A DNA stretch of 64,000 nucleotides, from contig CAMVOK010000010.1 of NCBI GenBank assembly GCA_947169115.1, positions 7,091 through 71,090 of the forward strand. The letters are read 5' to 3'. Numbering within the stretch: position 1 is the first letter of the stretch; every line of letters begins with the position of its first letter. Position numbers and translations under genes: made by a program. The notes beneath the pieces are model-generated. The model was not told the DNA's origin. It was given only the letters and a program-made list of their open reading frames with translations, and made no database searches. Shown here one piece after another: positions 14,169 to 62,810 of the stretch. This stretch comes from an uncultured Prevotellaceae bacterium (GTDB taxonomy: Bacteria > Bacteroidota > Bacteroidia > Bacteroidales > Bacteroidaceae).

Positions 14169-14201
14169 TTTACACGTTGCCTTGTTTGTTTAGAATTTCT
14201 A

Positions 14202-14220
14202 AGGTGCAAAAATTGCACCT
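14202..14220 (-). other. 7-bp-stem hairpin in the ORF6N-mod intergenic gap
   Basis: aggtgca-aaaat-tgcacct. No evidence for its function. Confidence 0.3.
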
Positions 14221-14234
14221 CAAATATAGTACAC

Positions 14235-14855: not shown

Positions 14856-14875
14856 GTTACTTTCTCCTAATTATT

Positions 14876-23525: not shown

Positions 23526-23568
23526 TGTAATTTATTTTTTTAGAGTTGTTGATAATCTTTTTAATGGT

Positions 23569-23599
23569 GACTATAGTTTCTATAGTACCTATAGTAATT
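23569..23599. repeat. 9-bp tandem word array (ctatagt type)
   Basis: ctatagttt ctatagtac ctatagtaa. Abuts the stop of one FKBP gene, upstream of the next. Confidence 0.85.
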
Positions 23600-38713: not shown

Positions 38714-38745
38714 ATCCACATTGTTTCTTTCGAACTTATTTATGA

Positions 38746-38782
38746 CGAGCCCTGGGCAACAGCCTGGGGCTCGCCTGTTTTT
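38746..38782 (+). terminator. Putative terminator after the M16 peptidase gene
   Basis: cgagccc...gggctcg stem followed by cctgttttt. Confidence 0.45.
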
Positions 38783-38961
38783 GCGACATTAAAGTGTAGT
38801 TTGTTGGAGTAACTATCTTGTGGCTATATGGGGGGCTTTGGAAAGTTTCGTTCTGCCATATTTTACCCCCATAATATGCCAATCGTTTAAAGAATAAATT
38901 GTAATTTATTAAATTGGAAAAATTTGAATGGAAAAGATTTGTCCGATTGTCATTTTTTTTG

Positions 38962-38969
38962 TACCTTTG
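38962..38969 (+). promoter_or_regulatory. Bacteroidota -7 promoter box for the six-gene envelope operon
   Basis: tacctttg preceded by a T run, 43 nt upstream of the ATG at 39012. Confidence 0.5.
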
Positions 38970-39011
38970 CGCCCGAATTTAACTTATTAAAGGTCAAAAG
39001 TTTTAAAGGTA

Positions 39012-41675
39012 ATGAAGCAAATAAATTCAGGATATACGATGAAAAGCCGCATGATGGCCCTCTTGGCCATGGTTGTTGTCTGCTCAACTGTACAGGCACA
39101 GATGATTAACTTCAAGTTCAAAATCAAGGAAGTGAAGGAGGAGGTTCAGTCTAATGGTAAATCCGTTAAGATGGAAAACGACGTGAACTCGGGACTCGAA
39201 GTCTTCACTTTTGGTGTTGAAGCCAGAGCTCGTGCCGCAGCTAAGCGTTTCATTGAAGGCTACGAAATCAAAAAGGGTGAAGGCGACTGCTATGACCAGA
39301 AGAAAGCTAAAGGTGGTGTTGCCAATAACGTAAAGGGTGATACACGTGGCTATGCTGTACTTACTGTGGCAGGTTCAAAGAGTGATACGGCCATAGTTAT
39401 CCCCATTGCAAAATATTACGAAGAGAGCACCAATACCGTTACCTATTCCGATGTGATTGATGGTGGTAAGGTGTTGAAGACGGTGCAGAAGAGTGGAAAG
39501 CAGAAGGCCCGTGGCGATAAGCAGGGTTCGGCTCGCATCTATGGCAACAAGGTGGTTGTAAAGGGTCAGATTCGTTTGGATTCGGCTTATACCCGTGACG
39601 ATGCCCGTTTCGTAGGTGCTCCCCGCTTGATGATGGTAGATACTGATGGCAAGGGAAAGGATAAGGTGGTTCACTATTTTGACCCTGTTGTGCTTGATGG
39701 GCAACCTTACGAGGAAACGCAATATCGTCGTATGCAATTCAATCTTGCAAATGACAAACTAAACAAGAACAAAATCAATCGTGATCGTCAGGTTATCCGT
39801 AGTGAAGTCTATCATGATGGTTTCAGGGGGCAGGACTCTATCTTTATGGAAACGGGGGAACCTTACCTCTTCAACTTCCAGGAAGAATACAGTCCCATTG
39901 ACCGTAATAAAAAATACAATGCTCGTTTGCATCGTTGGTATGAGGATTATAACAAGGTTTATAAAGACGACCCTGATTACTTGTTCTGGGATGGAAACTT
40001 GCAAGACCCCATGCAGTTCCTTGACTGGAGTAGTGCTCGTTCCATGCTTGATATAGACCCCTTGGAATACAAAAAGGAGGAAAAGTCTGAGGTTTCCAAG
40101 GCCAATAGGTCGGTAAAGCTGGAGTTTGAAGTGGGTAAAACCAGTTTGAACCAAGAGGACTCGTTGACTATGGCTGAGTTGAGTGGATTGAAAGATATGC
40201 TACAGCGTTGGTATAACGATGAAAATGCTGAGGTGCGTGATGTATATGTGAAGGGTTATGCTTCTCCCGAGGGTGGGTATGCTACCAATAAGACCTTAGC
40301 TGCTGGCCGTTCGCAAACGTTGATGGGAATTCTGCGTGGCCAAGCTGGTGCCAGCAAGGTAAAGGGTTGGCATCACGATTCGGATGTGGTAAGCTGGGAC
40401 GAGGTGGCAGACAGTCTGGAACAGAAGATAGCCACGCCAGAAGCTATTGAAGCTGCACAGGCGATCCGCTTGGTGACTTCGGCTACCAAAGATCGTGATG
40501 CTCAGGCACGACAAATTCAGTCGGCTCCTTATTTTGGCTATGTCAAGGACAATGCCTTGAAGATGGTACGTCGTGTGAATATCACTATTGAGTATGTAGC
40601 AACGCGTATCCTTACCCCCGAGGAAATCTATGAGAAATACGTGAAGGATGATCCCAAGGGCTATCGTGAGGGTATTGGTGAAAAAGACTACGAATATTAC
40701 CATCTGATGAATCGACTTTATGCAGAAGAGCGTTGGGATGAACTCTATACCATCTCGAAGGCTGCCTATAAGAATGTGGAAATCACGGGCGAACAGGCCA
40801 CGAAGGCTCGCCGTAAGCTAAACCCAGATTGGGCTCCCGAAAAAACGGACTCTGTGGATAAGTACTACATCGAGGAAGATAGGCAAAGCCCCTACTTCCG
40901 TCCTTATTCGCTGGCAGCTTACTATCTCAGTATATGCAAGTTGCGTAAGGAGGAAGCTGATACCCTATTGCTGGCCGACTATCTGGACGACCACCGCAAA
41001 CGCATCAATAAGAATCCCGACCTTGGTCAGGGCTTTGGTATCTGGAACGACCCCGCTATTGTGGTTAATCACATTCTGATGTTCTGCTATGCCAAGAACT
41101 TTGACCGCGCTGAGTATTATGCCCTCAACTGGCTACCCGATGACCCCAATGACCCGAACTACCAGACATTCCATAATCTGAGTATGTTTGTGGGCTGTCT
41201 GAATGGACGTGAGAGCGATCCCGAGGTGCAGGATTACATTAAATCGACATCTCCTATGAACCATGCCGTCATAGCTGCCGCTCAGGATAGCGAGGCTGGT
41301 TATAAGGAGGCACTGGAGATACTGAACGACCCTGATAAAGTGGACAATGATGAACCCAAGGTGCATTACTTGAAAGCTATCTGTCGTTTCCGTTTGAATC
41401 CCTTCAAGGATTACGAGCATCCTGCTTATCCTTCCTATAATATTTATGATAAAGACGGTGATGAGGAGACTGGCAAACGTGATTTTGCTGCGCCCATGTT
41501 GGAAGCCTTGCGCTTGAATCCAGATTATCTGAAACAATTGGAAGTAGATGGTTACTTTAATGATGCCTATCGTCGTATGGTAAAATACTTCTGGTATCGT
41601 TTGCAGCAGGGTGCAGAAATGCCCGACATCTGTCGTGAGTATGATGAACTGCGTCAGAAGTACACCGTGAAATAA
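39012..41675 (+). CDS. Secreted 887-aa protein with a degenerate OmpA-like motif and a helical-repeat C-terminal half (envelope operon gene 1)
   Basis: Signal MKSRMMALLAMVVVCSTVQAQ (alternative ATG at 39039). VYVKGYASPEGGYATNKTLAAGRSQTLMGIL (nt ~40248-40322) resembles the OmpA_C G.TD..G....N..LS..RA core. The C-terminal half is TPR-like and helical. Confidence 0.55.
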   Translation: MKQINSGYTMKSRMMALLAMVVVCSTVQAQMINFKFKIKEVKEEVQSNGKSVKMENDVNSGLEVFTFGVEARARAAAKRFIEGYEIKKGEGDCYDQKKAKGGVANNVKGDTRGYAVLTVAGSKSDTAIVIPIAKYYEESTNTVTYSDVIDGGKVLKTVQKSGKQKARGDKQGSARIYGNKVVVKGQIRLDSAYTRDDARFVGAPRLMMVDTDGKGKDKVVHYFDPVVLDGQPYEETQYRRMQFNLANDKLNKNKINRDRQVIRSEVYHDGFRGQDSIFMETGEPYLFNFQEEYSPIDRNKKYNARLHRWYEDYNKVYKDDPDYLFWDGNLQDPMQFLDWSSARSMLDIDPLEYKKEEKSEVSKANRSVKLEFEVGKTSLNQEDSLTMAELSGLKDMLQRWYNDENAEVRDVYVKGYASPEGGYATNKTLAAGRSQTLMGILRGQAGASKVKGWHHDSDVVSWDEVADSLEQKIATPEAIEAAQAIRLVTSATKDRDAQARQIQSAPYFGYVKDNALKMVRRVNITIEYVATRILTPEEIYEKYVKDDPKGYREGIGEKDYEYYHLMNRLYAEERWDELYTISKAAYKNVEITGEQATKARRKLNPDWAPEKTDSVDKYYIEEDRQSPYFRPYSLAAYYLSICKLRKEEADTLLLADYLDDHRKRINKNPDLGQGFGIWNDPAIVVNHILMFCYAKNFDRAEYYALNWLPDDPNDPNYQTFHNLSMFVGCLNGRESDPEVQDYIKSTSPMNHAVIAAAQDSEAGYKEALEILNDPDKVDNDEPKVHYLKAICRFRLNPFKDYEHPAYPSYNIYDKDGDEETGKRDFAAPMLEALRLNPDYLKQLEVDGYFNDAYRRMVKYFWYRLQQGAEMPDICREYDELRQKYTVK

Positions 41676-41729
41676 TATTATATATAATAAGGAAAAAAAT
41701 AAGGTATAAAAGATATACGGCATACAAAT

Positions 41730-43385
41730 ATGGGACTAAAAAAGGTATTAGCAATTTCACTTTTTGCCGTTAGCGGTAACGTAGTGCTTGCACAGACAGA
41801 GTACACCCCTGAGTATTTGGCGAAAACAGAAAACTACCTCGGTCGTCTTGGCCATGGGCGTGACAGCATAGAGGCACGTAAGTTCTTCGAAATGTATGTG
41901 AAGAACTTTAACACTGCTTGGAGTAGCGATAAAATAGAAGACTGGCGTGAGTGTTATCGTCCGTGGAAAGAGAGCATGGTCTTGGCACCCTACGCTTCGT
42001 ATAACCTGACCAATACGGGTGGTGGTATGCGTATGCTTACCAAGTTAATGGAAAATGAAACAGATACCGTGCTGCGTTACGTCTATTTCAAGGATTTGAT
42101 GAAGACTGACCAGTTCCGTATCCGCAATTTGGAGAAGTTGAATGCTGTCCCTAAAGATGGTGGAGAGGCGCGTATTCCTCTTTCGAAGGGTAGCGCCCTG
42201 ATGTGGAAGGCCCATCATTACCACACATTGGGAGGTGATTCGGCCTATGTTCCTGACCGTGTTTATCGCAAGGATTCTGCTTACCAGTATTTTGTAGATG
42301 CCTTTGCCCAGATTCGTAACGAAAACGTGGGTACAGACAATGAAATCAATCCTGGATACCTTGGAGAGTATTTCCGTGTATGTCGTGACTTATATATGTC
42401 AGACAAGGAAAAATACACGGAGCAGTTCTTGACGGACTATACCACCTGTTTGGAGACCTGTGACAAGATGATGGCTGTGTATAAAGATAAGGATACGCTA
42501 AACTGGAGTTATTATGCAGGTGTGCGTAACAATACGCAGATTTGGTTCAATGAAACTGGTGCTGGCAGTGCGGGTAATATAGCTGATTTCTACGGCTCGC
42601 GTATCGATTCACTGAAAGATAATCCTACGGCATTGAAGAATGCCATACATCTGATGATGACCAACGATTCGTTGTTGAACATGCCCATTCTGTATAAGGC
42701 ATGTCGCTATGCGTATGAACAAAATCCAGACTTCGAGAATAGTATTGGTATGGCCATGGAGGCAAAGATGAAACATAAGAGAGACTCTGCCATCTACTAT
42801 TTCGGACGTGCTTTTGATTTGGCTAAAAACGATAAGGAACGTTATGTGGCTACCTATCAGATGGGAATGGGCTTGTTTGTGGAAGCTATGCCAGAAGCCC
42901 CGACCAAGGAAGAACTGGATGCTTTGAGAGCTGTTTCAAGGTCGGAGTATGATGCAGTTGTTCAAGAGTATAACGAGGCGTTGGATGCTTGGCGTTCCCG
43001 TCAGAACGTGGCCGCTAACAAAATGGGTGAAGCTTTGACTTATGCCAATCGTGCTGGTATGGAAGGTCAGTATCTGGCACCCGTCTATTATAGTATGGCT
43101 CAGGCTTATCGTAGGGCACGTACATCAGAATCGCTAAGTAACGCCGAAACTTGTCTGCACAATGCAGTGGCAGTATATCCAGCCTTTACGCAAGGAAACA
43201 ACCTCATTGAGACGGAGCAGGCTAACATTTTAGCAGCCAAGGAAGGTATTGCTCGTGACGAGGAAAAAAGACAAGCCCGTCTGGCACTTATAAAATCGGC
43301 TGAGGCTAAGAGTGCCGAACAGAGGAAATACGAGGAATACCTGCGTAAGAAGAAGGAAGAGGAAGCCTTCTGGGGTAAGAAATAA
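41730..43385 (+). CDS. Secreted helical (TPR-like) protein with a K/E-rich tail (envelope operon gene 2)
   Basis: Signal MGLKKVLAISLFAVSGNVVLAQ. No catalytic motif. Tail EEKRQARLALIKSAEAKSAEQRKYEEYLRKKKEEEAFWGKK. Confidence 0.5.
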   Translation: MGLKKVLAISLFAVSGNVVLAQTEYTPEYLAKTENYLGRLGHGRDSIEARKFFEMYVKNFNTAWSSDKIEDWRECYRPWKESMVLAPYASYNLTNTGGGMRMLTKLMENETDTVLRYVYFKDLMKTDQFRIRNLEKLNAVPKDGGEARIPLSKGSALMWKAHHYHTLGGDSAYVPDRVYRKDSAYQYFVDAFAQIRNENVGTDNEINPGYLGEYFRVCRDLYMSDKEKYTEQFLTDYTTCLETCDKMMAVYKDKDTLNWSYYAGVRNNTQIWFNETGAGSAGNIADFYGSRIDSLKDNPTALKNAIHLMMTNDSLLNMPILYKACRYAYEQNPDFENSIGMAMEAKMKHKRDSAIYYFGRAFDLAKNDKERYVATYQMGMGLFVEAMPEAPTKEELDALRAVSRSEYDAVVQEYNEALDAWRSRQNVAANKMGEALTYANRAGMEGQYLAPVYYSMAQAYRRARTSESLSNAETCLHNAVAVYPAFTQGNNLIETEQANILAAKEGIARDEEKRQARLALIKSAEAKSAEQRKYEEYLRKKKEEEAFWGKK

Positions 43386-43432
43386 AGGAAAAGGAAACAA
43401 AGTACATACTTATATAGTTTATACATAAAGTA

Positions 43433-45805
43433 ATGAGATACAGATTCATCATTTTGGTGGCTGCCGTGTGTGGCCTCATGTCTGTGACGGACATAAAGGC
43501 CCAGGTGACGATAAGCCCGGAGGACGAAGCCTTCTTTAAATCACTCTTCCCTCAAAAGGAAGGAGATAATTGGGCCGACACGTACTATCAGGACAAATTC
43601 AAAAACCGACTTTCGTTCCATGCGAACGTAGTGGACTGGGTGCTTACCATGCCCAGTGCGGGTATTGAGTTCGACCTGAATAACAAGTTTGTCTTCGACG
43701 AGCACAAGAAGCGTACATGGAAGACCAATCGTACATTGTTGCTCTTTGGTAAGTACAATGGTCACACCAAGCATACAGTGGCTCCGAAGTTTGTCTTCGA
43801 CGTGGCTGCTGTTCGTTTGGAGTTTCGCAAGTATTGGCGTACGGGTAAAGTGGGATTGAATAATAACTACCATGAGGACTATCGTACGATGGACCTGTAC
43901 AAGCCCGATACGTTGTGGCGCAAGGTGAAGACGACCGATGAGTTTGGTGATACAATAATCAAGAGGGAGGCTTACTATAGCAGTAAAGACTCGGCAAGAA
44001 TAAACGAGGGCAAGGAGTTTGAGGGCGATCCAAATCGTGGACGTTTCTCAAATATGTATGAGAATGCCCGTCGTTTGGCCAGTACCCGCACGATAGAGAA
44101 TGCCCGCAACTGGCGTGCTTACTATCTGGGTGCATTTGCCGGTTGGGACAAGTATTCGTGGTGCCTGAGTAAGAAAGGTGAACAGGGAACTTTACTCTCC
44201 GTGGGTGCAACCTTCGGTTGGAGTGTACCCCTGTTGGCTACACACGACAAGGATTATGGTCTTGACCTTGATTTAGGTCTGAATGTCGGTGTTCCTGCTG
44301 CCAAGTATGAGGGATATAAGTATGTAGATGTGGACAACAATGCATACTATGTACATGACGGTCGCTCGAAGAACGATGGCTGGACCATCAATCCCAAGTA
44401 CATCCTGCGCGACATACACGTGGCACTCGTTTATCGTTTCCGTTCCATCAGCCGTAAGGTCAGCTTGGCTATTGTTGACGATTACCAGAAGCGCATCGAT
44501 GCCTGGAATGAGCGTCAGCGTAAGATGTCGGAAGAGAAACGTCTGATAGAAGAGGAGTGGCAGCGTAGGTTGGAAGAGCAGAAACGTACTGACAAGCACA
44601 ATACCGACTCTCTGTCATGGTACAACTGGCAGCGTAAGGAATATCTGGTGGCCATGAAGGAACTCTATCCCGATCGTCCATGGCAGACTCGCCAAGACAG
44701 TATCGACTATATCCGACTTGTGCTGGGTATCGACACGGTTGACTATGTACGTGTGAAGGCTCGTGAGGATCGTCTGAAGAAGATGCAGGAAGATATGTTG
44801 CGTGACTCACTGGATTGGATTAAGCGTGTGGCCGAACGTGACAGTCTGGGCAAGGCTAAGATTGAACAACGCAAGCAGAAGCGTGCTGAGCGTGATAGTT
44901 TGGACAAGCGCAATGCCTTCATGAAGGATAGTATTGCACACGTAAAGGATAGTCTCGATCAGATTCGCAGGGATAGCATCGGTGCTGTACGCGATAGTGC
45001 TCAGAAGGTCAAGGATGCCGCACGTGATAGCATCCAGGCCATTAAGAATGCTCAACGCGATAGTTTGCAGAAGATTCGTGATGATGAGCGTCGGGCACGC
45101 TTGGCAGAAAAGAAGGCTTTGCAGGACGAACGTGATGCCGAAGAGGCTAAGCGCAAGGCCGAGCAGAAGTTGCGTCAGGATTCTATTGATGCTGAACGTC
45201 GCAAACAGCGTATCGAACAGGAAATGGAACGTAAACAACGTGAGTTTGACGCTGGCGTGAACAAGGATAAGCGCAAGGAAGAGGCTGAGGCTCGGAAGCA
45301 AGCTCGTGAGCGGGATAAGGAAGAAGAGGCTGAGGCTCGTCGCATTGAACAGGAAGCTCAGAAGCGTGCTCGTGAGAACGAGAAACGTATGAGGGCTCAG
45401 GAGGCAGAGAACCGCAAGCAGCGTGAGGCTGAGGAGCAGGAGGAACTGAAAGCAGAGGCTGAAAAGAAGAAAGCCGAAGCTGATGCCATGAAGGAAAAGA
45501 AAGCTCAGGAAGCAGAGGCAAAGAAGGCTGAGGCTGATGCCAAAAAGCAGGCTGACAAGGAAGCCAAGGATGCTGAGCGAGCTAAGAAGGAAGCTGAGAA
45601 GGCCGAGGCTGATGCCAAGAAGCAGGCTGACAAGGAAGCCAAGGATGCTGAACGGGCTAAGAGGGAAGCTGAGAAGGCCGAGGCTGATGCCAAGAAGCAA
45701 GCTGAACGTGAGGCCAAAGAGGCAGCAAAACGTGCAGAGCAAGAGCGAAAGGCTGCTGAGAAAGAGGCTGCTAAAGCTGCCAAAGAGGCCAAAACCGAAG
45801 AATAA
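43433..45805 (+). CDS. DUF3575-like outer-membrane beta-barrel fused to a ~450-aa highly charged E/K/R/A helical domain (envelope operon gene 3)
   Basis: Signal MRYRFIILVAAVCGLMSVTDIKAQ. Barrel cues LSFHANVVDWVLTMPSAGIEFDL and VRLEFRKYWR. From aa ~345 the sequence is a continuous charged helix with RDS[LI] repeats and 25-aa EADAKKQADKEAKDAERAKKEAEKA repeats. Confidence 0.6.
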   Translation: MRYRFIILVAAVCGLMSVTDIKAQVTISPEDEAFFKSLFPQKEGDNWADTYYQDKFKNRLSFHANVVDWVLTMPSAGIEFDLNNKFVFDEHKKRTWKTNRTLLLFGKYNGHTKHTVAPKFVFDVAAVRLEFRKYWRTGKVGLNNNYHEDYRTMDLYKPDTLWRKVKTTDEFGDTIIKREAYYSSKDSARINEGKEFEGDPNRGRFSNMYENARRLASTRTIENARNWRAYYLGAFAGWDKYSWCLSKKGEQGTLLSVGATFGWSVPLLATHDKDYGLDLDLGLNVGVPAAKYEGYKYVDVDNNAYYVHDGRSKNDGWTINPKYILRDIHVALVYRFRSISRKVSLAIVDDYQKRIDAWNERQRKMSEEKRLIEEEWQRRLEEQKRTDKHNTDSLSWYNWQRKEYLVAMKELYPDRPWQTRQDSIDYIRLVLGIDTVDYVRVKAREDRLKKMQEDMLRDSLDWIKRVAERDSLGKAKIEQRKQKRAERDSLDKRNAFMKDSIAHVKDSLDQIRRDSIGAVRDSAQKVKDAARDSIQAIKNAQRDSLQKIRDDERRARLAEKKALQDERDAEEAKRKAEQKLRQDSIDAERRKQRIEQEMERKQREFDAGVNKDKRKEEAEARKQARERDKEEEAEARRIEQEAQKRARENEKRMRAQEAENRKQREAEEQEELKAEAEKKKAEADAMKEKKAQEAEAKKAEADAKKQADKEAKDAERAKKEAEKAEADAKKQADKEAKDAERAKREAEKAEADAKKQAEREAKEAAKRAEQERKAAEKEAAKAAKEAKTEE
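45530..45730 (+). repeat. 75-bp tandem repeat (about 2.7 copies) inside the charged-helix coding region
   Basis: gaggctgatgccaa starts at 45530, 45605 and 45680. Units are near-identical and encode 25 aa each. Confidence 0.9.
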
Positions 45806-45838
45806 CCCCAATAATGAACTAAAATAACGAAAGACGAT

Positions 45839-46195
45839 ATGCGTTTAAGATATTTCTTAGGATTGTGTGCCGCACTGTTGTTTACGGCTTGCAGTGTGGG
45901 GGTGGATGTCGAATACGACAACACGATGTCGCCCTGCGATATTCGGATAAAGTGGGATGTGGATCCTGCTGCCGTAGTCAAAGGCAAGGTGTTATATACC
46001 CGCGTTGGGGCTACAACTACGGAATCGGTGGATTTCAGTGCTCATTATCGCTATCGTGACAATGGCAGTTTTGAAACACGCATCTTGATGCCCAAGAAGG
46101 TGAAGAAAACAGTAACCGTACAGGTGGCTGATGGAACATACGCAGCTACAATAGAGAATGATGGCTCGGATCGTGTAATTAAGGTAACATTATAG
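45839..46195 (+). CDS. Small lipoprotein (118 aa, envelope operon gene 4)
   Basis: Lipobox MRLRYFLGLCAALLFTAC. Beta-rich, with no known motif. Confidence 0.55.
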   Translation: MRLRYFLGLCAALLFTACSVGVDVEYDNTMSPCDIRIKWDVDPAAVVKGKVLYTRVGATTTESVDFSAHYRYRDNGSFETRILMPKKVKKTVTVQVADGTYAATIENDGSDRVIKVTL

Positions 46196-46203
46196 GTATT
46201 GGT

Positions 46204-46776
46204 ATGAAAGTTTTGATGAGACGTCTGTTTTTGACTACGATTATAAGTCTTTCTGCATTTGGTACGGCAAGGGCTCAGATGCTTGCGCTGAAGACCGATG
46301 CTCTGCCTTATGTGGCATTTGCTCCCAATTTGGGTGCGGAGCTTGTGACGAGTAACAAGACAAGTGTGACGCTGGAGGCCGTGGTGGCTCTGCATTCCTT
46401 CGGTACAAACATGAAGGCAGCAGCTGTTTCTCCAGAATTCCGTTACTACTTCCATGGCCGTCCTATGACACGTGAGTTTATAGGTTTCAGCGTGGTGGGT
46501 GCTACCTACAAATGGTACAACGATGATGGTAAGACGTTTAAGGGAAATGTCGGTGGATTCGGTCTGACATTTGGTTACGTATGGCGCCTGGGAGTCAAGC
46601 AGCGTTGGAACATGGAAGCCCGTGGTGGAATTGGACTCTACCGTTACAATCAGCAGTCGCGCTATGCTTGGGAGGGTTCTCAGGATGAATTCCCAGAACG
46701 CGGTTGGGTCGTGCTGCCCTATAAAGTAGGATTGGCTTTCAGTTACATTCTTCCCACGGAGAAGAAAAAGAAGTAA
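46204..46776 (+). CDS. DUF3575-type small outer-membrane beta-barrel protein (envelope operon gene 5)
   Basis: Signal peptide, then LALKTDALPYVAFAPNLGAELV...VSPEFRYYF...FGLTFGYVW. This alternating-hydrophobic strand pattern is typical of the DUF3575 family. Confidence 0.65.
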   Translation: MKVLMRRLFLTTIISLSAFGTARAQMLALKTDALPYVAFAPNLGAELVTSNKTSVTLEAVVALHSFGTNMKAAAVSPEFRYYFHGRPMTREFIGFSVVGATYKWYNDDGKTFKGNVGGFGLTFGYVWRLGVKQRWNMEARGGIGLYRYNQQSRYAWEGSQDEFPERGWVVLPYKVGLAFSYILPTEKKKK

Positions 46777-46819
46777 GGTTTGACAGTTGAATAAGGAAAA
46801 AAGAAAATATATACGTGAT

Positions 46820-49800
46820 ATGTTTACTATAAAATCAAGATATGTTTGTGTGCTCACCCTCCTCTTTGGAGCATTCGTGACGGATGCAAGGGGAGAGAGT
46901 TTACCAGACCAACCAAAGGAGATGCCTGCCGACTCTGTTTCGGCGAGCACGGGAAGTGTATCGACACGGCGTGCTCCTATCGACCCGTTCATGTACAGGG
47001 TTCAGAATCGTCATCTGGAGAAAGGAGCCGACTTCTATTCCGACAGCATCAAGTGGACAGACCATATTTCTCTTGGCCTGTTTACTGGCCCTGTGGTTCA
47101 TGGTGGGCATGTGAGTTCTATGACTCTGGGTTCGCGCATCAACTTTGGTCGCCCCATCGGTGTGATTGCTTCATTCCAGTTCAGTCGTCTGCATGGTGCA
47201 CGTTTGATATACCAGAACAATCTGTTTAAGAACAACTATCGTATCGACGGTTCGCTCAATACTCATGAATTGGGTGCTGGTTATATGTTTAACTTCACCA
47301 ATTACTTCAAGGGCTATGATCCCAACAAGCGTTTTAATGTGTTGGCTACAGCTACGGCATTTGCTGATTTTACTAAGACTAAATTTGACGGAAAGAGACG
47401 CGTAGGAGCCCGTGGTGAGTTTGGTCTGTTGTTCAACTATCGTGTATTGCGTAACCTGTCTGTATTTGCTGAACCTTATATCGGCCTTACAACCGACGAT
47501 TACGACCATGACCTTACTCCCCATCGTTATGACTTCCTTGGCGGTCTGCGTGCCGGTGTTGCTACTAACGGTGCAACAAAGTCGTTCTTCGAACATGTAC
47601 GGAACAGTAAGAATAACCTCTATCAGCCCAAGTTCTGGGGTCAGCACTTCTTCTTTGGTGCCAGTGGTGGACGCATCTGGTCGAATGCCGATAAGGATCC
47701 TATACATGGCAAGATGTCAGCTGAGTCTCACGTATTCTTAGGTTATAGATTCTCACCTGCTCATGCTTTACGTTTCCAGGCCACATACTTTAAGACGCCA
47801 GAGAACATCGAGCGTAAGCATCACGTGATGGGTGAATTGGACTACATGATTAACTTCACCAACATGTGGCGTGGTTATGACCCCAAGCGTCGTTTCCTCG
47901 TATCGGGAATCCTCGGTATGGGTGCACGCTATCTTGAGGATCCTGGTAAAGATGATGTTGTTGTTCCCATGGCGGTGGCAGGTCTTGGATTTAACTACCA
48001 TCTGACTCCGCAGATTAGTTTCTTCGCTGAGCCTTATGGTGGGTATGCTTTAGGACGTAAGGGTGCGAAGAATACGATTTTTGGTGGTATTCGTGGAGGT
48101 GTTCAATTTGACTTTATAGATACTTACACCTACATGCCTCATTATGCCCTTACTACCCATGAGATGGAGGTAGCTTCGAAGTGGCAGATGAATCCGATGT
48201 CTCACGTCTTCTATGGTGCTAGTCTTGGATCGCAGGCTGTGCATAGCCGTCCAAATAATAACGAATTTACGATGCCTTTTAATGCTTTTATAGGGTATCG
48301 CTTTACTCCTGTACAGTCGTTGCGATTCATGGGATCCTACATCAAGACAGATGAGGATATTGTCCGTGGCAAGCATACGTCTTTTGAATTAGACTATATG
48401 CTCAACTTCTCCAATTTAATCTATGGCTATAAGGAGAATCGCCGCCTGAATGTAACTGGATTTGTCGGTGCGGGTATGCGCAACATTATCAGCGAAGGTA
48501 CGAATGGTAGGCGTGCTGTGATGATAAGTTCTGGTGCCAATGTCTCTTATCGCCTCTACAAAGGTATGAGCCTCTTCTTGGAACCCTATGTGCAGCTGGC
48601 ATACACACAACCTCACCGCTATTATTCGTTTGTTGGAGGTGTAAATGGTGGTGTGATGGTAGATATGGAATATGCAACCATGTATGGCAAACGTCTTGGT
48701 GGCGATTATCAGCCTGACTGGAAAAATGAGGTGTGGCGTCACTTCTTTGTTGGAGGTGGCGGTGGTATAACGGGTGTACACACTCGTGTTTACAAGCACA
48801 TGAAGACTTACCCCATGTTCTTATTAATGGGCTATCGCTTCTCTCCCAATCAGGCTCTGCGTTTGAAGGCTGGATACATCAAGACGGATGAGAACATTGA
48901 CCGCCATCAGCATGTGAGTGCTGAGGTTGATTACATGCTCAACTTCACTAATATGTTTAATCCCTATCGTCCAAATCGTCTGTTGAACGTGATGGGTTAT
49001 TTGGGTGTCGGCGCAAAATATCTTGATAACCTGAAGGATCGTGATGGTATTCTCTCTCCCATGGGAACTATGGGTGTGGACATCGCTCTACGTATCAAAC
49101 CAGGTTTGAGCGTCTTTGCCGAGCCTCATTTGGATATCGCGAAAGCTAAGGATCAGAACTTCTTGTCGATGTATTACGGAGCCAACTTAGGTCTTGTGCT
49201 CAGCTTCGACGAACTGAATGCTTATAGTCCTCGATGGGGTACTCCCACGGCGGAGTGGATTTTCAAACCCTATCAGCGTCTCTTCTTCGGAGGCAGTGCT
49301 GGTTACTTGCGTACTCAGCGTGTGAGCTCCAAGAATCAGGTGCCTGTATCCTTGTTCATGGGTTACCGATTCAATCCCAACCATGCTTTGCGTCTGAGAG
49401 CTACCTATAATAAGACCGATGAGAAGATTAACCGTTCTAACCACGTAGGTGGAAGTCTTGACTATATGTTCAATGCTTCGAATATGATTGCTGGTTATAA
49501 ACCAAATCGTCCTCTTAACCTAATTGGTTTTATTGGTCTTGGTGTTCGTAATGTAGAGGCTGAGAACCTGAAGAGAAACGAGGTGGCACTGGGCTTGATG
49601 GGAAATGCAGGTATGGACATTGCATATCGCGTTACCCGCAATTTGAACATCTTTATAGAACCCTATGTAGGTGGTGTACATTCGCGCAGGACTAAAGAGA
49701 ACGTGAACTTCTTTATGGGTGTAAATGGTGGTTTCGTACTTAACTTACAAGATGTAGACGAGTCCTATCGTGGTGTTAAGACCAATCATAATCCTATCGT

Positions 49801-50923
49801 AGAGGCTTCTTATGGTTGGATGTTCCCCATGCTTACGGGTTCTGGTATGCACAATTCGGGTCTTTCACTTGATGTACGTTTGGGAACCTGGCTTGATCCC
49901 TATTTCGGTGTTCGTGGCTCGTTACTCTTTGAGCACTATGGATATTCTCCCTATTACAGTTCTCAGAAAGACAAAAATAAGGATAAGGATAATGGAAATG
50001 CAAATTCACGTGTAGTGAAGGGGCGTGTCGAAGGCTTGTTTAATCCTCTGAACCTCTCTTCTAACTGGCGTGAAAATGCCGATGAAAAGAAGTTTGAACT
50101 GAATTTGGCTGCTGGTATTGAACTCGGTGTGGCTGATAAGAAGTATGCCATAGGCAAGGGCGATGATAAATACGGTGTCTATGGTATCACATTCGCAGCC
50201 CAGGCTTTGTATAAAGTAAACCCCAATACAGCCATCTTCATTGAGCCTCGCTACGAACACATGGGTGCATGGTTTGTAGGTAGTGGTAAGACCGTGAAAT
50301 ATCTGGGTGACTTTAAGCATGATAATATTGCTACGATTAGTGGTGGTGTGCGTGTCATACGTGGAACGGCTGAGCAACGTGACGATGAACGCCGTCTCAA
50401 CTTTGAGCAGTCCATCTTCATGATGGCCAATGTCGGTGGCTACAAGGGCTTGGGCTACTACAAGAGAGAAAATGGTGGACGCCTAGGTAAGTTTGGTGGT
50501 CTTTCACTCGGTTTCTTGATTACCCCGGTTCATGGTATTAAGTTCAATGTTCAGCCTTCTTGGTATAAGGTGAAGGGTGGTGCAAAGCCCTATAACTATA
50601 CGCTTATGGACTACCGCCTTTCCTACCTTCTCAACTTCAGCAATCTCTACCAGAGTCCAGCTTATCGCAAGGTTGATTTCTATTGGCAGGCTGGTGTAGG
50701 TCTCTCCACTATTATCTCATCACCCAAGGGATGGAAACGCCGTGCACCAAGTGCATCGCTCGGGTTCTTGGTTGCCTATAACATCAACAAGCACTGGGCT
50801 ATTACCACTGAGCCTCTCGGCCAGTTGGTAGCAAAGAGAAATTTCTTGCCCGGCTACAGTATTAAGCCTCGCATGGCTATGATGAGGGCTGATATCTCTG
50901 TTGGCGCAATGTGGAAGTTCTAA
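46820..50923 (+). CDS. Giant outer-membrane protein made of about seven tandem small beta-barrel modules (envelope operon gene 6)
   Basis: Signal MFTIKSRYVCVLTLLFGAFVTDARG (ATG 46820; the ORF track uses TTG 46787). The module GYRF[ST]P..ALR....Y.KT.E.I.R..HV..E[LV]DYM.NF[TS]N....Y.P.R...V.G..G.G.R recurs in four clear internal copies at ~195-aa spacing, with three more divergent modules flanking them. The protein ends in ...VGAMWKF, a terminal aromatic beta-signal. Confidence 0.7.
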   Translation: MFTIKSRYVCVLTLLFGAFVTDARGESLPDQPKEMPADSVSASTGSVSTRRAPIDPFMYRVQNRHLEKGADFYSDSIKWTDHISLGLFTGPVVHGGHVSSMTLGSRINFGRPIGVIASFQFSRLHGARLIYQNNLFKNNYRIDGSLNTHELGAGYMFNFTNYFKGYDPNKRFNVLATATAFADFTKTKFDGKRRVGARGEFGLLFNYRVLRNLSVFAEPYIGLTTDDYDHDLTPHRYDFLGGLRAGVATNGATKSFFEHVRNSKNNLYQPKFWGQHFFFGASGGRIWSNADKDPIHGKMSAESHVFLGYRFSPAHALRFQATYFKTPENIERKHHVMGELDYMINFTNMWRGYDPKRRFLVSGILGMGARYLEDPGKDDVVVPMAVAGLGFNYHLTPQISFFAEPYGGYALGRKGAKNTIFGGIRGGVQFDFIDTYTYMPHYALTTHEMEVASKWQMNPMSHVFYGASLGSQAVHSRPNNNEFTMPFNAFIGYRFTPVQSLRFMGSYIKTDEDIVRGKHTSFELDYMLNFSNLIYGYKENRRLNVTGFVGAGMRNIISEGTNGRRAVMISSGANVSYRLYKGMSLFLEPYVQLAYTQPHRYYSFVGGVNGGVMVDMEYATMYGKRLGGDYQPDWKNEVWRHFFVGGGGGITGVHTRVYKHMKTYPMFLLMGYRFSPNQALRLKAGYIKTDENIDRHQHVSAEVDYMLNFTNMFNPYRPNRLLNVMGYLGVGAKYLDNLKDRDGILSPMGTMGVDIALRIKPGLSVFAEPHLDIAKAKDQNFLSMYYGANLGLVLSFDELNAYSPRWGTPTAEWIFKPYQRLFFGGSAGYLRTQRVSSKNQVPVSLFMGYRFNPNHALRLRATYNKTDEKINRSNHVGGSLDYMFNASNMIAGYKPNRPLNLIGFIGLGVRNVEAENLKRNEVALGLMGNAGMDIAYRVTRNLNIFIEPYVGGVHSRRTKENVNFFMGVNGGFVLNLQDVDESYRGVKTNHNPIVEASYGWMFPMLTGSGMHNSGLSLDVRLGTWLDPYFGVRGSLLFEHYGYSPYYSSQKDKNKDKDNGNANSRVVKGRVEGLFNPLNLSSNWRENADEKKFELNLAAGIELGVADKKYAIGKGDDKYGVYGITFAAQALYKVNPNTAIFIEPRYEHMGAWFVGSGKTVKYLGDFKHDNIATISGGVRVIRGTAEQRDDERRLNFEQSIFMMANVGGYKGLGYYKRENGGRLGKFGGLSLGFLITPVHGIKFNVQPSWYKVKGGAKPYNYTLMDYRLSYLLNFSNLYQSPAYRKVDFYWQAGVGLSTIISSPKGWKRRAPSASLGFLVAYNINKHWAITTEPLGQLVAKRNFLPGYSIKPRMAMMRADISVGAMWKF

Positions 50924-50932
50924 TTTATCAAA

Positions 50933-52732
50933 ATGCAAGACATACGCAATATTGCTATTATCGCTCATGTCGACCATGGTAAAACTACCTTGGTCGACAA
51001 GATGCTTATGGAGGGGAACCTGTTTCGCGACAATCAGCAGACGGGTGAGTTGATGTTGGACAATAACGAGCTGGAGCGTGAGCGCGGTATTACCATCCTC
51101 TCGAAGAATGTTAGCATAAACTACAAGGGTACAAAGATAAATATTATCGATACCCCGGGGCACTCAGATTTTGGCGGTGAGGTAGAGCGTGTTCTAAATA
51201 TGGCAGATGGTTGTCTTCTTTTGGTGGATGCTTTTGAAGGTCCAATGCCCCAGACACGTTTCGTATTGCGCAAGGCACTAGAGATAGGTCTAAAACCTAT
51301 TGTTGTGGTAAATAAGGTGGACAAATTAAACTGCCGACCAGAGGAAGTTTATGAAATGGTCTTTGACCTTATGTTCGACCTTGGCGGTACCGAAGAACAA
51401 CTTGACTTTCCTGTTATCTACGGTTCTGCAAAGAACGGATGGATGGGCCCCGACTATAGTAACCCCACGGGGGATATAAAGTATTTACTCGACCAAATTC
51501 TGGAACATATACCCGCTCCTAATCAGTTGGAGGGTACGCCTCAAATGCTTATTACGTCACTTGACTATTCTATCTATACAGGACGTATTGCCGTGGGACG
51601 TGTCCATCGTGGCACCATCCGCGAGGGTATGAATATCACCATTGCTCATCGCGATGGTTCGATGGAAAAGACCAAGATAAAGGAACTGCACACCTTTACG
51701 GGTATGGGGCAGGCCAAAATCTCTGAAGTAACCAGTGGCGACATCTGTGCTATCATCGGCCTTGAACATTTCGAGATTGGTGATACTATCTGTGACTTTG
51801 AGAATCCCGAACCTCTGCCACCGATTAGCATTGATGAACCCACAATGTCCATGCTTTTCACCATCAACGACTCTCCTTTCTTCGGAAAGGAAGGCAAATA
51901 CTGCACCAGCCGTCACATCCATGAGCGTCTGCAAAAGGAACTGGAGAAGAATCTGGCTTTGCGTGTAGAGCAGCCCGAAGGATTCAATGACCGTTGGATC
52001 GTTTCTGGTCGTGGTGTACTTCATCTCTCTGTACTTATCGAAACCATGCGCCGTGAGGGCTACGAACTTCAGGTTGGTCAGCCACAAGTCATCTATAAGG
52101 ATATTGACGGTGTGAAGTGTGAGCCCATAGAGGAATTGACCATCAATGTGCCTGAGGAGTTCTCCAGTAAGATGATAGATATGGTAACTCGTCGTAAGGG
52201 TGAGATGACTAGCATGGAGACGCAAGGATCGCGCGTGAACATCGAGTTTAACATACCTTCGCGTGGTATCATCGGTCTGCGTACTAATGTTCTTACGGCC
52301 AGTCAGGGTGAGGCTATTATGGCTCACCGCTACAAGGAATATCAGCCTTATAAGGGTGACATACAGCGTCGTATCAATGGTTCAATGATTGCTCTCGAAG
52401 GTGGTACGGCCTATGCTTATGCCATCAACAACCTGCAAGACCGCGGTTCTTTCTTCATCGACCCACAGACTGAGGTATATGCTGGTCAGGTAGTAGGTGA
52501 GCATGTTCATGAAAACGACCTTGTAGTTAATGTCTGCAAGGCCAAGCAACTTACGAACATGCGTGCTTCGGGTAGCGATGAGAAGGTTCGTATTATTCCT
52601 CCCATTGTTTTCTCCTTGGAGGAAGCTCTCGAATACATAAAGGAGGATGAATACGTAGAGGTAACCCCAAAATCCATGCGTCTGCGTAAGATTATCCTCG
52701 ATCATTTGGAGAGAAAACGTGCAAATCGTTAA
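50933..52732 (+). CDS. typA: Translational GTPase TypA/BipA
   Basis: [36 protein letters not shown] and NKVD. Length and C-terminal domain fit BipA. Confidence 0.93.
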
Positions 52733-52753
52733 AGTAATCCCCATCATTGTTGT

Positions 52754-54343
52754 ATGAAGAAATTCCTGTCTACCATTTTCCTAATGACAGTTCTCTCTGG
52801 GCATGCTCAGCAGAGTGATTTCGTCATAGAGAAAGGAGCATTTACAAACGAGTGGTCATCCCTCTCTGCATGGGAGTGCCCAGAATGGTTCAAGGATGCC
52901 AAGTTTGGAATATGGGCACACTGGGGACCTCAATGTCATGCAGAAGCGGGCGACTGGTATGCCCGTTTCATGTATTATCAGGGCAGTGGTGCATTTAAAT
53001 GGCATGTAAAGCACTTTGGCGACCCCAATAACTTTGGATTGAAAGAACTGTGTAATGACTGGAAAGCTCAGAATTGGAATCCGGAGGAGTTGATTAACTT
53101 ATATAAGAGCGTGGGGGCTCGTTATTTTATGACTTTGGGTAACCATCACGACAACTTTGACTTATGGGGCTCACCTTATCAGGAGTGGAACTCGGTAAAT
53201 GTGGGACCTAAGAAAGATATCGTGAAGGGATGGAGCGAAGCCTGTAAAAAGGTGGGATTACCTTTGGGCGTTAGCATTCATGCGTCTCATGCCTGGACAT
53301 GGCTGGAGCCTTCGCAGAACTATGATGGAAACTTGACGAAGGCTGATGGAGTAGGGCTCTGGTGGGAAGGCTTTGATCCTCAGGAACTCTATGCACAGAA
53401 TCATGCACACTCTATGGGATGGGAGAATTCTGGGAGTATTCACGGGCAGTGGGACTGGGCTAACGGTGCCAGTTTGCCCTCTGCTACATACAAACAGAAG
53501 TTTCAGAACCGCGTATTGGAGTTAATCAGTGATTATAATCCTGATATGCTGTACTTCGACGACACCGCCATGCCATTCTATGGCTGTGACGAGCAGATAG
53601 GTAAAAATATATTGCAGCATTACTATAATCATAGTGCCAATCAGCATAAGGGAAAGCCACAGGTCGTTGTTACGGGTAAGCAGCTGACCCCAGACCAGAA
53701 GCAATACATGATGTGGGATGTAGAACGCGGTATTCCCGACCGCCCACAGCCTCTTTATTGGCAGACATGTACATGCATAGGTGAGTGGCACTATAATCAG
53801 GATGTATATAATAGAAACAGATATAAAAGTGCTGCTACGGTTATTCGCATGCTTGTAGATGTGGTTTCAAAGAATGGTAACCTCTTACTGAGTATTCCCA
53901 TTAAGAGTGACGGTACTATCGACGATAAGGAACGCCTTATATTAAGTGAAATCAAAGCATGGATGGACATCAATAGCGAGAGTATATATGGTACGCGTCC
54001 TTACCTGCCCTTTGGCGAAGGACCTTTGGCAGAAGCCAATAATCCCATGAAAGCACAGGGTTTCAACGAGGGACAGGCATATTCGTCGCAGGATGTTCGG
54101 TATGTGGAGAAAAAGGGGAAAGTCTATGCCACTATCATGTCATGGCCGTCGGAGGGTGATTTCATGTTCAAGTCATTCCCAATAGTTAAGTCTATGGATG
54201 GCCGTAAGGTGAAAGAGGTTAATCTCTTGGGTTATGGAAAGGTTGCCTTCAAACAAGACTCTAATGGCCTCACGGTGTCTATTCCTTCTACACAGCCTAA
54301 TTCCATCGCCCCAGTTTTCCGGATCGCTTTTAAGAGAAAATAA
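52754..54343 (+). CDS. Alpha-L-fucosidase-like glycoside hydrolase (GH29-like)
   Basis: Signal peptide. WFKDAKFGIWAHWGPQ resembles the GH29 N-terminal motif, and the C-terminal beta-sandwich is of typical length. The family call is moderately confident. Confidence 0.65.
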   Translation: MKKFLSTIFLMTVLSGHAQQSDFVIEKGAFTNEWSSLSAWECPEWFKDAKFGIWAHWGPQCHAEAGDWYARFMYYQGSGAFKWHVKHFGDPNNFGLKELCNDWKAQNWNPEELINLYKSVGARYFMTLGNHHDNFDLWGSPYQEWNSVNVGPKKDIVKGWSEACKKVGLPLGVSIHASHAWTWLEPSQNYDGNLTKADGVGLWWEGFDPQELYAQNHAHSMGWENSGSIHGQWDWANGASLPSATYKQKFQNRVLELISDYNPDMLYFDDTAMPFYGCDEQIGKNILQHYYNHSANQHKGKPQVVVTGKQLTPDQKQYMMWDVERGIPDRPQPLYWQTCTCIGEWHYNQDVYNRNRYKSAATVIRMLVDVVSKNGNLLLSIPIKSDGTIDDKERLILSEIKAWMDINSESIYGTRPYLPFGEGPLAEANNPMKAQGFNEGQAYSSQDVRYVEKKGKVYATIMSWPSEGDFMFKSFPIVKSMDGRKVKEVNLLGYGKVAFKQDSNGLTVSIPSTQPNSIAPVFRIAFKRK

Positions 54344-54953: not shown

Positions 54954-55010
54954 AAATAGTAAATAGTAAACAGTAAATGGTAAATAGTAAATTGTTAAAA
55001 AGTAAATTAG
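54954..55010. repeat. 7-bp tandem word array containing the YfhO-like start codon
   Basis: aaatagt aaatagt aaacagt aaatggt aaatagt aaattgt taaaaagt aaattag. Confidence 0.9.
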
Positions 55011-61662: not shown

Positions 61663-61716
61663 AGGTCCTTTCTAAAGAAAGCGAACAAGTTCGAGCGAAA
61701 AGTTGAAAGTTTTTTG

Positions 61717-61724
61717 TACCTTTG
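61717..61724 (+). promoter_or_regulatory. Bacteroidota -7 box 5 nt upstream of the ATG (leaderless-type arrangement)
   Basis: tacctttg-ccccc-ATG. Confidence 0.45.
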
Positions 61725-61729
61725 CCCCC

Positions 61730-62797: not shown

Positions 62798-62810
62798 GAA
62801 GGACGGAGAG

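Follow-up and report, generated by a model that had tools for sequence, protein, structure and literature searches.

Organization of the six-gene cluster

A cluster of six genes, hereafter g1 to g6, was analysed in a 64,000-nt stretch of DNA (the window) from an uncultured Prevotellaceae bacterium (GenBank assembly GCA_947169115.1, contig CAMVOK010000010.1, positions 7,091 to 71,090). The cluster occupies 39012-50923 and encodes exported proteins, among them a predicted chain of seven small outer-membrane barrels (g6), two DUF3575-type barrels (g5 and g3), and a protein with an OmpA_C-like domain (g1). A first-pass annotation had proposed six co-directional genes at this locus. All of these open reading frames (ORFs) were present on the + strand with the lengths claimed, the gaps of 54, 47, 33, 8, and 43 bp given for g1 through g6 were borne out, and the inventory of the six products was accurate. 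The genes and the elements preceding them are as follows:

38746-38783, + strand: intrinsic terminator that closes the preceding M16 peptidase gene and bounds the unit on its 5' side (12-bp stem at 38746-38773 with 9 GC pairs, then a T-run)
38962-38969, + strand: Bacteroidetes-type -7 box TACCTTTG (TAnnTTTG), 50 nt upstream of the g1 ATG
39012-41675, + strand: g1, 887 amino acids (aa), PgmA-like, predicted periplasmic; signal peptide, beta-rich N-terminal region, OmpA_C-like domain, helical repeats
41730-43385, + strand: g2, 551 aa, exported helical (TPR-like) protein, from alignment and PDB profile search
43433-45805, + strand: g3, 790 aa, DUF3575-type barrel, conserved helix, and charged tail, from Pfam, hhalign, and alignment
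45839-46195, + strand: g4, 118 aa, small lipoprotein with lipobox LFTAC↓S, poorly conserved
46204-46776, + strand: g5, 190 aa, FimX-like DUF3575 small outer-membrane barrel, from a full-length Pfam DUF3575 match
46820-50923, + strand: g6, 1367 aa, predicted poly-8 multibarrel outer-membrane protein, seven tandem ~185-aa units, ending ...MWKF

Export of every product, as claimed, could be read directly from the sequence: signal peptide cleavage was predicted at A↓Q in g1, g2, g3, and g5 and at ARG↓E in g6, and g4 carries the lipobox LFTAC↓S. The four predicted signal peptidase I sites of g1, g2, g3, and g5 (39012-46776) are thus all Ala↓Gln. N-terminal glutamine (pyroglutamate) on exported proteins is a Bacteroidetes habit, which these sites fit. 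No enzyme family was found for g1-g6 in Pfam or NCBIfam, in agreement with the absence of catalytic motifs stated earlier, and the NCBIfam scan of the cluster proteins gave no significant match.

The TAnnTTTG box expected at 38962 ahead of the six genes was found in the 298-bp spacer between the terminator of the M16 peptidase gene and g1. On the + strand of the window 29 such boxes were observed against ~21 expected, and ~0.1 would be expected by chance in this spacer; taken alone the box is weak evidence of a promoter, and TACCTTTG is regarded here as a putative one. No terminator-like sites were present within the intergenic gaps of g1-g6, and no Rfam RNA elements were found in 38000-53000. 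The layout is consistent with a single operon, as the genes share one strand, lie 8-54 bp apart without a terminator between them, and stay clustered in related loci. An origin as a genomic island was rejected, since the GC content of the cluster is like that of the rest of the window.

A predicted seven-barrel protein encoded by g6

The first-pass annotation had suggested about seven tandem barrels in g6. Seven homologous units were identified, with eight predicted strands in each of the modelled units 2-7:

47057-47605, + strand: g6 unit 1
47633-48127, + strand: g6 unit 2
48191-48679, + strand: g6 unit 3
48731-49219, + strand: g6 unit 4
49265-49759, + strand: g6 unit 5
49781-50359, + strand: g6 unit 6
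50387-50920, + strand: g6 unit 7

The protein would be 1378 aa long if read from an upstream TTG; the ATG at 46820 is favoured by the ortholog alignment, in which M1 is invariant. It matched Pfam OMP_b-brl at E 9e-7 and contained seven EP[YHRL] landmarks spaced ~185 aa apart. Comparisons by hhalign between units 1-5 and 7 gave 98-100% probability, and unit 6 was divergent (86-93% against units 1, 2, 3, and 5; 20-23% against units 4 and 7). The AlphaFold2 (AF2) model, which covers aa 268-1367 (units 2-7) with a pLDDT of 73.9, contained exactly 48 strands, i.e., 6 x 8, joined by partly helical linkers of 16-31 residues. A Foldseek search with this six-unit model returned outer-membrane barrels only, at a query-normalised TM-score of ~0.1 that is uninformative on closure of the units. 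The last strand of each unit is hydrophobic or aromatic and resembles a beta-signal. A relationship of the units to DUF3575 was rejected (hhalign probability <= 9%).

Under the usual topology, in which both termini face the periplasm, the predicted outer loops have a mean length of 8-10 aa and are the least conserved parts of the units (0.42-0.45), whereas the predicted periplasmic turns are conserved like the strands (0.63-0.68). Turn 2 is unusually long (13 aa), with a short helix and the motif F[TS]N..xGYxPxRR in every unit. Because the periplasmic turns are conserved and the outer loops are short and variable, the conserved face of g6 appears to point inward. Besides glycines, the residues common to every unit are charged or aromatic (the Arg of GYRF, the DY pair, and the Glu of EP) and include no recognisable catalytic set.

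By architecture and host taxonomy, the predicted protein is assigned to the poly-8 multibarrels, which were described computationally by Solan, Pereira, Lupas, Kolodny, and Ben-Tal (PNAS 2021; PMC8346858). That superfamily is restricted to Bacteroidetes and comprises 289 proteins with 2-11 barrels, mainly from Prevotella and Bacteroides (PMC8346858). The tandem eight-stranded units in one chain, the Prevotella/Bacteroides-type hosts, and the variable unit number are shared with g6 and its relatives; the relatives found here have 3 to ~15 units and lengths of ~230-2889 aa, and the published set has 2-11 units. Searches gave 19 g6 homologs among 5.8 billion proteins, and a HMMER scan of 1.84 billion representatives with units 2-5 gave 234 clusters, 129 of them at E <= 1e-10; the lengths listed for these matches ranged from ~230 to 2889 aa, most being ~570-1500 aa. 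Neither a gene context nor a partner is given for poly-8 proteins in the 2021 description (PMC8346858), and no follow-up literature was found. Linkage to DUF3575 and g1-like genes (see below) and the periplasm-facing conservation are added to the description of the class here.

DUF3575-type barrels of g5 and g3

The identification of g5 as a DUF3575-type barrel was borne out by a full-length match to Pfam DUF3575 (PF12099; 108.2 bits, E 3.9e-31, model positions 3-177 of 177, cut-off 21.1 bits), and the g5 alignment took in 18 relatives. No solved relative of DUF3575 was found in the PDB; the best match of g5 was the N-terminal barrel of OprF, which was not significant (E 0.095).

In the product of g3, aa ~55-340 make up a barrel with an insertion, aa ~340-440 a conserved helix, and aa 441-790 a variable charged tail. 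Its own match to DUF3575 was partial (22.9 bits, E 5.9e-5). The ortholog in the related locus L006 (related loci carry L numbers throughout) matched at 33 bits in two stretches, so that g3 is read as a barrel with an insertion. In addition, hhalign aligned g5 with the N-terminal part of g3 at 81% probability (E 1e-5). Of the DUF3575-like barrel and ~450-aa charged helix previously assigned to g3, the barrel therefore stands, whereas the single conserved helix does not: ~100 aa form a conserved helix and ~350 aa a variable tail.

The 350-aa tail consists to 84% of K/E/R/D/A/Q and contains no proline. Among orthologs it is 0 to ~360 aa long, and in the window it includes one repeated element:

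45522-45705, + strand: 75-bp tandem repeat in the g3 tail, 2.5 copies, 94% identical, encoding EADAKKQADKEAKDAERAKKEAEKA-type repeats

The tandem repeat points to a recent change in tail length and is a likely source of g3 length variation between strains. With a tail of such variable length and a recent tandem repeat, the ruler-like helix of the first-pass annotation could not be upheld, and a role of the tail as a fixed-length ruler was rejected. Genes resembling g3 and encoding charged tails were also found in the distant modules L132, L134, and L138.

The OmpA_C-like domain of g1

Three parts were distinguished in the g1 protein: aa ~30-330 are rich in beta structure, aa ~355-535 form an extended OmpA_C-like domain, and aa ~536-887, the C-terminal half, consist of helical repeats. 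In the AF2 model (pLDDT 80.2) the alpha/beta fold of OmpA C-domains is predicted. The best PDB matches in a Foldseek search with this model were all OmpA-type peptidoglycan-binding domains (6TOP, 5U1H, 3TD3, 5NHX, and 4RHA), including those of PorE (6TOP), OprF (5U1H), and the OmpA proteins of A. baumannii, Klebsiella, and Salmonella, at probability 1.0 and a target-normalised TM-score of 0.5-0.71. This agrees with the OmpA_C-like nature proposed for g1 earlier. In a PDB profile search the top three matches were likewise OmpA domains, at E 0.19-1.7.

An alignment of 15 homologs revealed a variant of the peptidoglycan-site motif:

40248-40322, + strand: invariant variant peptidoglycan-site motif VKGYASPEGGYATNKTLAAGRSQTL, aa 413-437 of g1

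The motif has the form GYASPEG-x4-N-x2-LA-x2-R in all 15 homologs, with G415, S418, P419, E420, G421, N426, L429, and R433 invariant. The canonical motif, which we take from A. baumannii OmpA structures to be D...N..L..R with the Asp and Arg holding diaminopimelate, is retained in its Arg; its Asp position is occupied by Ser418, and the invariant Glu420 follows two residues on.

DUF3868 (PF12984) gave no match in g1 at E <= 1, and distant relatives of g1 carry CarbopepD_reg_2 in place of an N-terminal DUF3868 (Pfam). The 15 g1 homologs were found among 5.8 billion proteins; repeating the word-indexed protein search with the g1 profile gave almost nothing further.

Products of g2 and g4

In the ortholog alignment g2 has a K/E-rich C-terminal helix and ends in an invariant FW-x-KK. 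There was no Pfam match in g2 itself; its ortholog in L001 matched TPR_1 at E 2.9e-4, below the cut-off, and weak TPR matches were obtained in the PDB profile search (Tom70, E 0.0027; TPR of OGT, E 0.005). Genes resembling g2 also occur in the distant loci L136 (E 4e-90) and L134 (E 4e-8). The possibility that g2 is a copy of the helical half of g1 was rejected (probability 2%).

Orthologs of g4 are 52-242 aa long, have little in common beyond the lipobox region, and, like g4, match no Pfam family. Unrelated lipoprotein genes lie at similar positions in L134, L136, and L138. A vestigial pilin was considered for g4 and rejected, as no family matched and the orthologs are alike only at the lipobox region.

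Conserved linkage of the poly-8 gene with DUF3575 and g1-like genes

The close family is rare, and its sources are uncultured rumen and gut Bacteroidaceae/Prevotellaceae genomes. Synteny had been named beforehand as the test able to refute the prediction, and the gene cluster proved to be strongly conserved in related genomes. Seven close loci carry these six families as a cluster. All six genes were found together in L001/L002, L004, L005, and L007 and also in GCA_016648615, the last judged by gene lengths and Pfam only; L006 contains five of the six, without g4. Two gene orders occur among the close loci, g1-g2-g3-g4-g5-g6 and g2-g3-g1-(g4)-g5-g6. Homologs of the cluster proteins at 31-70% identity keep dozens of invariant residues.

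Each of the 18 poly-8 loci with upstream DNA, whether from a near or a distant lineage, has a DUF3575 gene adjoining its poly-8 gene, and 17 of them also have a g1-like gene; the 18th, L003, ends at the start of its DUF3575 gene, so that g1 is not scorable there. This census of 18 loci from within the superfamily covers the window, L001, L003-L010, GCA_016648615, L132-L135, L137, and L138. A minimal module of three genes, encoding a DUF3575 protein, a g1-like protein of 667-695 aa, and a poly-8 protein of 3-7 units, was found in L008, L009, L010/L011, L133, and L137, and its g1-like proteins combine CarbopepD_reg, a SPEG-containing OmpA-like domain, and TPR.

Relatives of g3, g2, and a lipoprotein are frequent additions, and larger versions of the module occur in other distant loci. 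L132 encodes g3-like, DUF3575, g1-like, and 2244-aa poly-8 proteins (the last a type also represented in NCBI genomes) from genes with 4-bp overlaps, and L134 a g3-like protein, two lipoproteins, DUF3575 and g1-like proteins, a 2889-aa poly-8 protein, and a g2-like TPR protein. L138 contains genes for g3-like, lipoprotein, DUF3575, g1-like, and poly-8 products; in L135 two weak Mfa-like genes precede the DUF3575, g1-like, and poly-8 genes. L136, whose upstream side ends at the contig end, contains poly-8, lipoprotein, and g2-like (E 4e-90) genes. The DUF3575 and OmpA-like genes are immediately adjacent in L008-L010, L132-L135, L137, and L138, and in the window they share one putative operon with g2-g4 between them. 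Thus poly-8 relatives accompanied by the same gene set, with 3 to ~15 barrels, are found in distant lineages.

Relationship to the head genes of type V pilus operons

DUF3575 barrels and OmpA-like partners had been named as neighbours of type V pilus genes, and this link was confirmed in metagenome loci. A metagenome scan with a degenerate DNA pattern of the g1 motif gave at least 120 loci. Among the matches listed, the motif was in frame in 117 of 120, in proteins mostly of 466-500 aa, and at least 68 of these 117 were directly preceded by a DUF3575 gene in the same orientation. The g1 profile aligned with ~480-aa DUF3868/OmpA/TPR proteins over ~200 aa (E 1e-10 to 1e-30); for pilus-operon proteins the aligned span in the profile was positions ~343-534 (up to ~570), at E 1e-20 to 1e-30. 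The Pfam order in these pilus loci was DUF3575, then DUF3868 with OmpA (weak) and TPR, Mfa1-like fimbrillin, Mfa2 anchor, and FimA-like protein. The 59 genes directly downstream of such pairs included 38 with Fimbrillin_C, 14 with P_gingi_FimA, and 7 with Mfa2 (counts may overlap).

In P. gingivalis, PG2130 is listed as FimX and PG2131 as '60 kDa protein; OmpA COG2885', both being Bacteroidales-specific (PMC1887533), and BT1066 and BT1064 are the homologs of the pair in a fimbrial operon of B. thetaiotaomicron (PMC2954217). PgmA fractionates with the outer membrane in P. gingivalis (PMC3436787), and DUF3575 proteins are present in outer-membrane vesicles (PMC12937337). The function of FimX/PgmA has been called 'not fully characterized', with PgmA suggested as an usher (PMC7482747). 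On sequence comparison, g5 and g1 are assigned as relatives of the FimX/PgmA-type pair, FimX being taken as the DUF3575 protein and PgmA as the DUF3868/OmpA protein from the papers and the accession order.

As in this pair, g5 is a full-length DUF3575 protein, g1 contains the ~200-aa OmpA-like domain with GYASPEG..N..LA..R followed by helical repeats, and the two genes are clustered on one strand with both products exported. The cluster departs from the pair in that g1 is about twice as long, with no detectable DUF3868 and another kind of beta-rich region at its N-terminus. Moreover, g1 and g5 are separated in the window, and no pilin genes follow, a poly-8 chain being linked instead. The constant association of poly-8 genes with a FimX/PgmA-type pair appears to be a new point, not reported before. 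The description of the assembly as undescribed was, on the other hand, too strong for its parts: the poly-8 class was published in 2021 (PMC8346858), and the FimX/PgmA-type pair has been known since the 2000s (PMC3436787, PMC1887533, PMC2954217).

The reported absence of fimbrillins was confirmed both in the cluster and in the rest of the window. The pilin families Fimbrillin_C, P_gingi_FimA, Mfa2, and Mfa_like_1 gave no match in g1-g6 at E <= 1, none in the g4 orthologs, and none in other window genes at E <= 1e-5. Clear hits to a known pilus system had been listed as a finding that would speak against a distinct assembly, and of this one half was observed: the cluster is linked to the non-pilin head genes of pilus operons, but contains no pilins.

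The pair normally precedes pilin genes, and the cluster might accordingly be viewed as a decayed type V pilus operon that has lost its pilins and has no present function. The weak Mfa_like_1 genes upstream of the L135 module could be cited in favour of such decay. All ORFs are intact, however, dozens of residues are invariant across homologs of 31-70% identity, and the gene set recurs in distant lineages with 3 to ~15 barrels; we give this explanation hardly any credence.

As a separate observation, the two genes with weak or faint Mfa_like_1 matches in L135 (785-3647) make it the only locus seen to pair pilin-like and poly-8 genes.

A possible wall-anchored patch of small barrels

From the gene content, folds, homologies, and conserved linkage described above, we infer a membrane topology, peptidoglycan binding, protein contacts, and a tethering role, and tentatively favour, at somewhat under an even chance, the view that the products form a patch of small barrels anchored to peptidoglycan, in effect a multivalent OmpA in separate parts. 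The FimX/PgmA-type pair (the eight-stranded g5 barrel and g1) would serve a chain of seven barrels (g6) in place of pilins, with g3 (a second DUF3575 barrel with a charged periplasmic helix), g2 (TPR-like), and g4 (lipoprotein) added to the pair. Nine small barrels (g5, g3, and the seven of g6) would lie next to one another in the outer membrane, exposing hardly any loops at the surface. The g1 protein would bind peptidoglycan via its OmpA-like domain, and g1 and g2 may grip the conserved periplasmic barrel turns via their beta and helical-repeat domains. The outcome would be an outer-membrane patch stapled to the cell wall, like an OmpA split into chains and made multivalent. The span from outer membrane to peptidoglycan proposed in the first-pass annotation is thus kept as our best guess.

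The barrel patch is the most economical reading because it accommodates the apparently inward conserved face of g6, the wall-binding fold of g1, the helical-repeat regions of g1 and g2, and the barrel and helix of g3. That no enzyme, plug, pore, or pilin families were found in the cluster with Pfam and NCBIfam was also counted in its favour.

Known envelope systems resemble this arrangement in part. As in OmpA, a small barrel and an OmpA_C fold are both present. In the cluster, however, these elements are on separate polypeptides with nine barrels per wall-binding domain, the barrels belong to other families (DUF3575 and the poly-8 unit, mutually not detectably related), and the peptidoglycan-site Asp is replaced. 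PorE-PorP of type IX secretion follows a comparable logic of a barrel with a wall-anchored partner: the best structural match of the g1 OmpA-like domain was the PorE C-domain (6TOP), and distant g1 relatives carry CarbopepD_reg, OmpA-like, and TPR domains. In contrast to PorE, g1 shows no sequence-level membership, beta-propeller, or lipobox, the cluster contains no type IX secretion genes, and g6 gave only a non-significant match to PorG (E 0.025). The g3 protein is similar to Braun's lipoprotein Lpp in that a long helical stretch in the periplasm is joined to the outer membrane, but its tail ranges from 0 to ~360 aa and changes by tandem repeats, with no sign of covalent or defined attachment.

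Several points weigh against the patch. Closure of the g6 units as separate barrels is deduced from strand counts. Pfam OmpA (PF00691) matched g1 below the gathering threshold (14.1 vs 27.2 bits, E 0.063) and, as judged from the alignment, the peptidoglycan-site Asp is replaced (GYA-S-PEG), so that wall binding by g1 is putative. As one straight helix the g3 tail would measure ~52 nm, beyond the width of the periplasm, so that its geometry misfits a simple tether. FimA of P. gingivalis polymerises without fimX and pgmA, and fimA transcription is reported to drop when these genes are lost (PMC3436787), a hint that their role is regulatory and not mechanical.

The last result would be accommodated by an envelope sensor or regulatory module, in which the pair reports the envelope state to a two-component system and the barrels are the sensed or controlled target; lower fimA transcription via the FimS/FimR cascade has been reported for mutants with fimX or pgmA inactivated (cited in PMC3436787). 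Nevertheless, no kinase, sigma, or anti-sigma gene was found in or beside the window cluster, nor in most related loci, and ~4000 aa of structural protein would be a large investment for such a role, which we regard as quite unlikely.

Alternatively, g1, g2 (with BamD/BepA-like logic), and the DUF3575 barrels might chaperone or seed the insertion of the multibarrel chain, or of lipoprotein pilins in pilus operons. Insertion of a multibarrel chain is an open problem (PMC8346858), a beta-signal-like strand closes each g6 unit, lipoprotein genes recur in the modules, and the suggested usher function of PgmA (PMC7482747) would fit. Such a biogenesis system is, however, difficult to reconcile with the finding that fimX and pgmA are not required for FimA export or polymerisation (PMC3436787), with an eight-stranded barrel that has no lumen for a substrate, and with a peptidoglycan-binding fold, which is unexpected in a chaperone. 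We consider it unlikely.

The properties of the barrels themselves bear on two further explanations. Adhesion by avidity was proposed for gut poly-8 proteins by Solan et al. (PMC8346858), and the cluster may accordingly encode an adhesin or receptor array in which identical poly-8 loops bind repetitive glycans while the pair only anchors, as for the pilus. The FimX/PgmA-type pair is otherwise tied to adhesive pili, and the outer loops of g6 are its most variable parts, as exposed surfaces would be. On the other hand, these predicted loops average 8-10 aa without a conserved motif, conservation lies on the predicted periplasmic side, and no lectin or adhesin domain was found in the cluster with Pfam, making an adhesin array improbable. 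Other eight-stranded barrel families serve in uptake or lipid modification, and the gut habitat of the host is rich in lipid and bile; a conduit for uptake or lateral diffusion of hydrophobic compounds or lipids (OmpW-like), or a lipid-modifying array like PagP/PagL, can therefore be envisaged. There was no similarity to the OmpW, PagP, or PagL families in Pfam or NCBIfam, the residues conserved in g6 units form no recognisable catalytic set, and the peptidoglycan-binding partner would be left unexplained. We find this explanation very doubtful.

The wall-anchored barrel patch can also be placed in a wider frame. The FimX/PgmA-type pair may be a general wall-anchored docking platform in the outer membrane of Bacteroidales, with the poly-8 protein as a pilus-independent client. 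Its covalently linked barrels would form a belt, a skeleton embedded in the membrane that is tuned in length by unit number (3 to ~15) and stapled to peptidoglycan via repeated periplasmic docking motifs; we regard this extension as possible but rather doubtful.

Genes neighbouring the cluster

Upstream, an M16 (insulinase-type) peptidase gene directly precedes the cluster in the window (35888-38713), in L001 (1-2684), and in L002. In the unrelated locus L136 an M16-like gene (5071-5655; motif HFTEH) overlaps the end of the g2-like gene. The M16 peptidase gene may thus be a recurrent neighbour.

Downstream, typA/bipA (50924-52732) begins 9 bp past the g6 stop, with no terminator or TAnnTTTG box between them, so that the transcript may extend past the six genes. 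The TAnnTTTG box nearest to typA is 445 nt upstream, inside g6. The typA gene also adjoins g6 in L001, L002, L004, L005, L007, and GCA_016648615; this adjacency is missing from L003, L006, and the distant modules. Its adjacency is probably lineage synteny with possible read-through. As a neighbour in six close loci that is absent from L003, L006, and all distant modules, typA was rejected as a component of the module. Farther downstream, two tandem Acyl_transf_3 paralogs and a LicD-family gene (60652-63620) lie beside glycosyltransferases and a YfhO-like protein (54977-57601), and the region looks like a surface-glycan modification neighbourhood.

Three blocks on the - strand and one on the + strand were observed in the upstream part of the window. 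A restriction-modification-like block (12210-17746, - strand) encodes an N6_N4 DNA methylase, an ORF6N-domain protein, and a ResIII helicase-type protein of 653, 206, and 956 aa, respectively. Three consecutive genes for FKBP-type peptidyl-prolyl isomerases (21766-24182, - strand; 298, 288, and 194 aa) each carry FKBP_N and FKBP_C. A 734-aa BspA-type leucine-rich-repeat surface protein is encoded at 28526-30727 (- strand), and its C-terminus, ...GIYIKNGKKILF, resembles a type IX secretion sorting domain, with no family match confirming it. Further, the most GC-rich part of the window (0.54), at 1-4791, contains three ORFs on the + strand, of 423 aa (truncated at the window edge), 247 aa, and 895 aa, with no Pfam match at E <= 1e-5 and a weak match to fn3.

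Implications for Bacteroidales envelope biology

The six genes form a genuine and conserved envelope cluster, probably one operon, in Bacteroidales from gut and rumen, and its parts are not orphans. Two puzzles meet in it: multibarrels were predicted in 2021, and FimX/PgmA-type genes heading pilus operons have been in the literature for about twenty years. Linkage of the poly-8 gene to the pair merges both into one testable hypothesis, that of a cell-wall-anchored barrel platform. To our knowledge, Bacteroidales lack Braun's lipoprotein, and how their outer membrane is fastened and sheds vesicles is of interest for gut biology. The linkage also points to cultured gut Bacteroides and Prevotella carriers that are suited to testing. 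If true, the docking-platform reading would for the first time assign a function to the multibarrel proteins as well as to the genes that head pilus operons.

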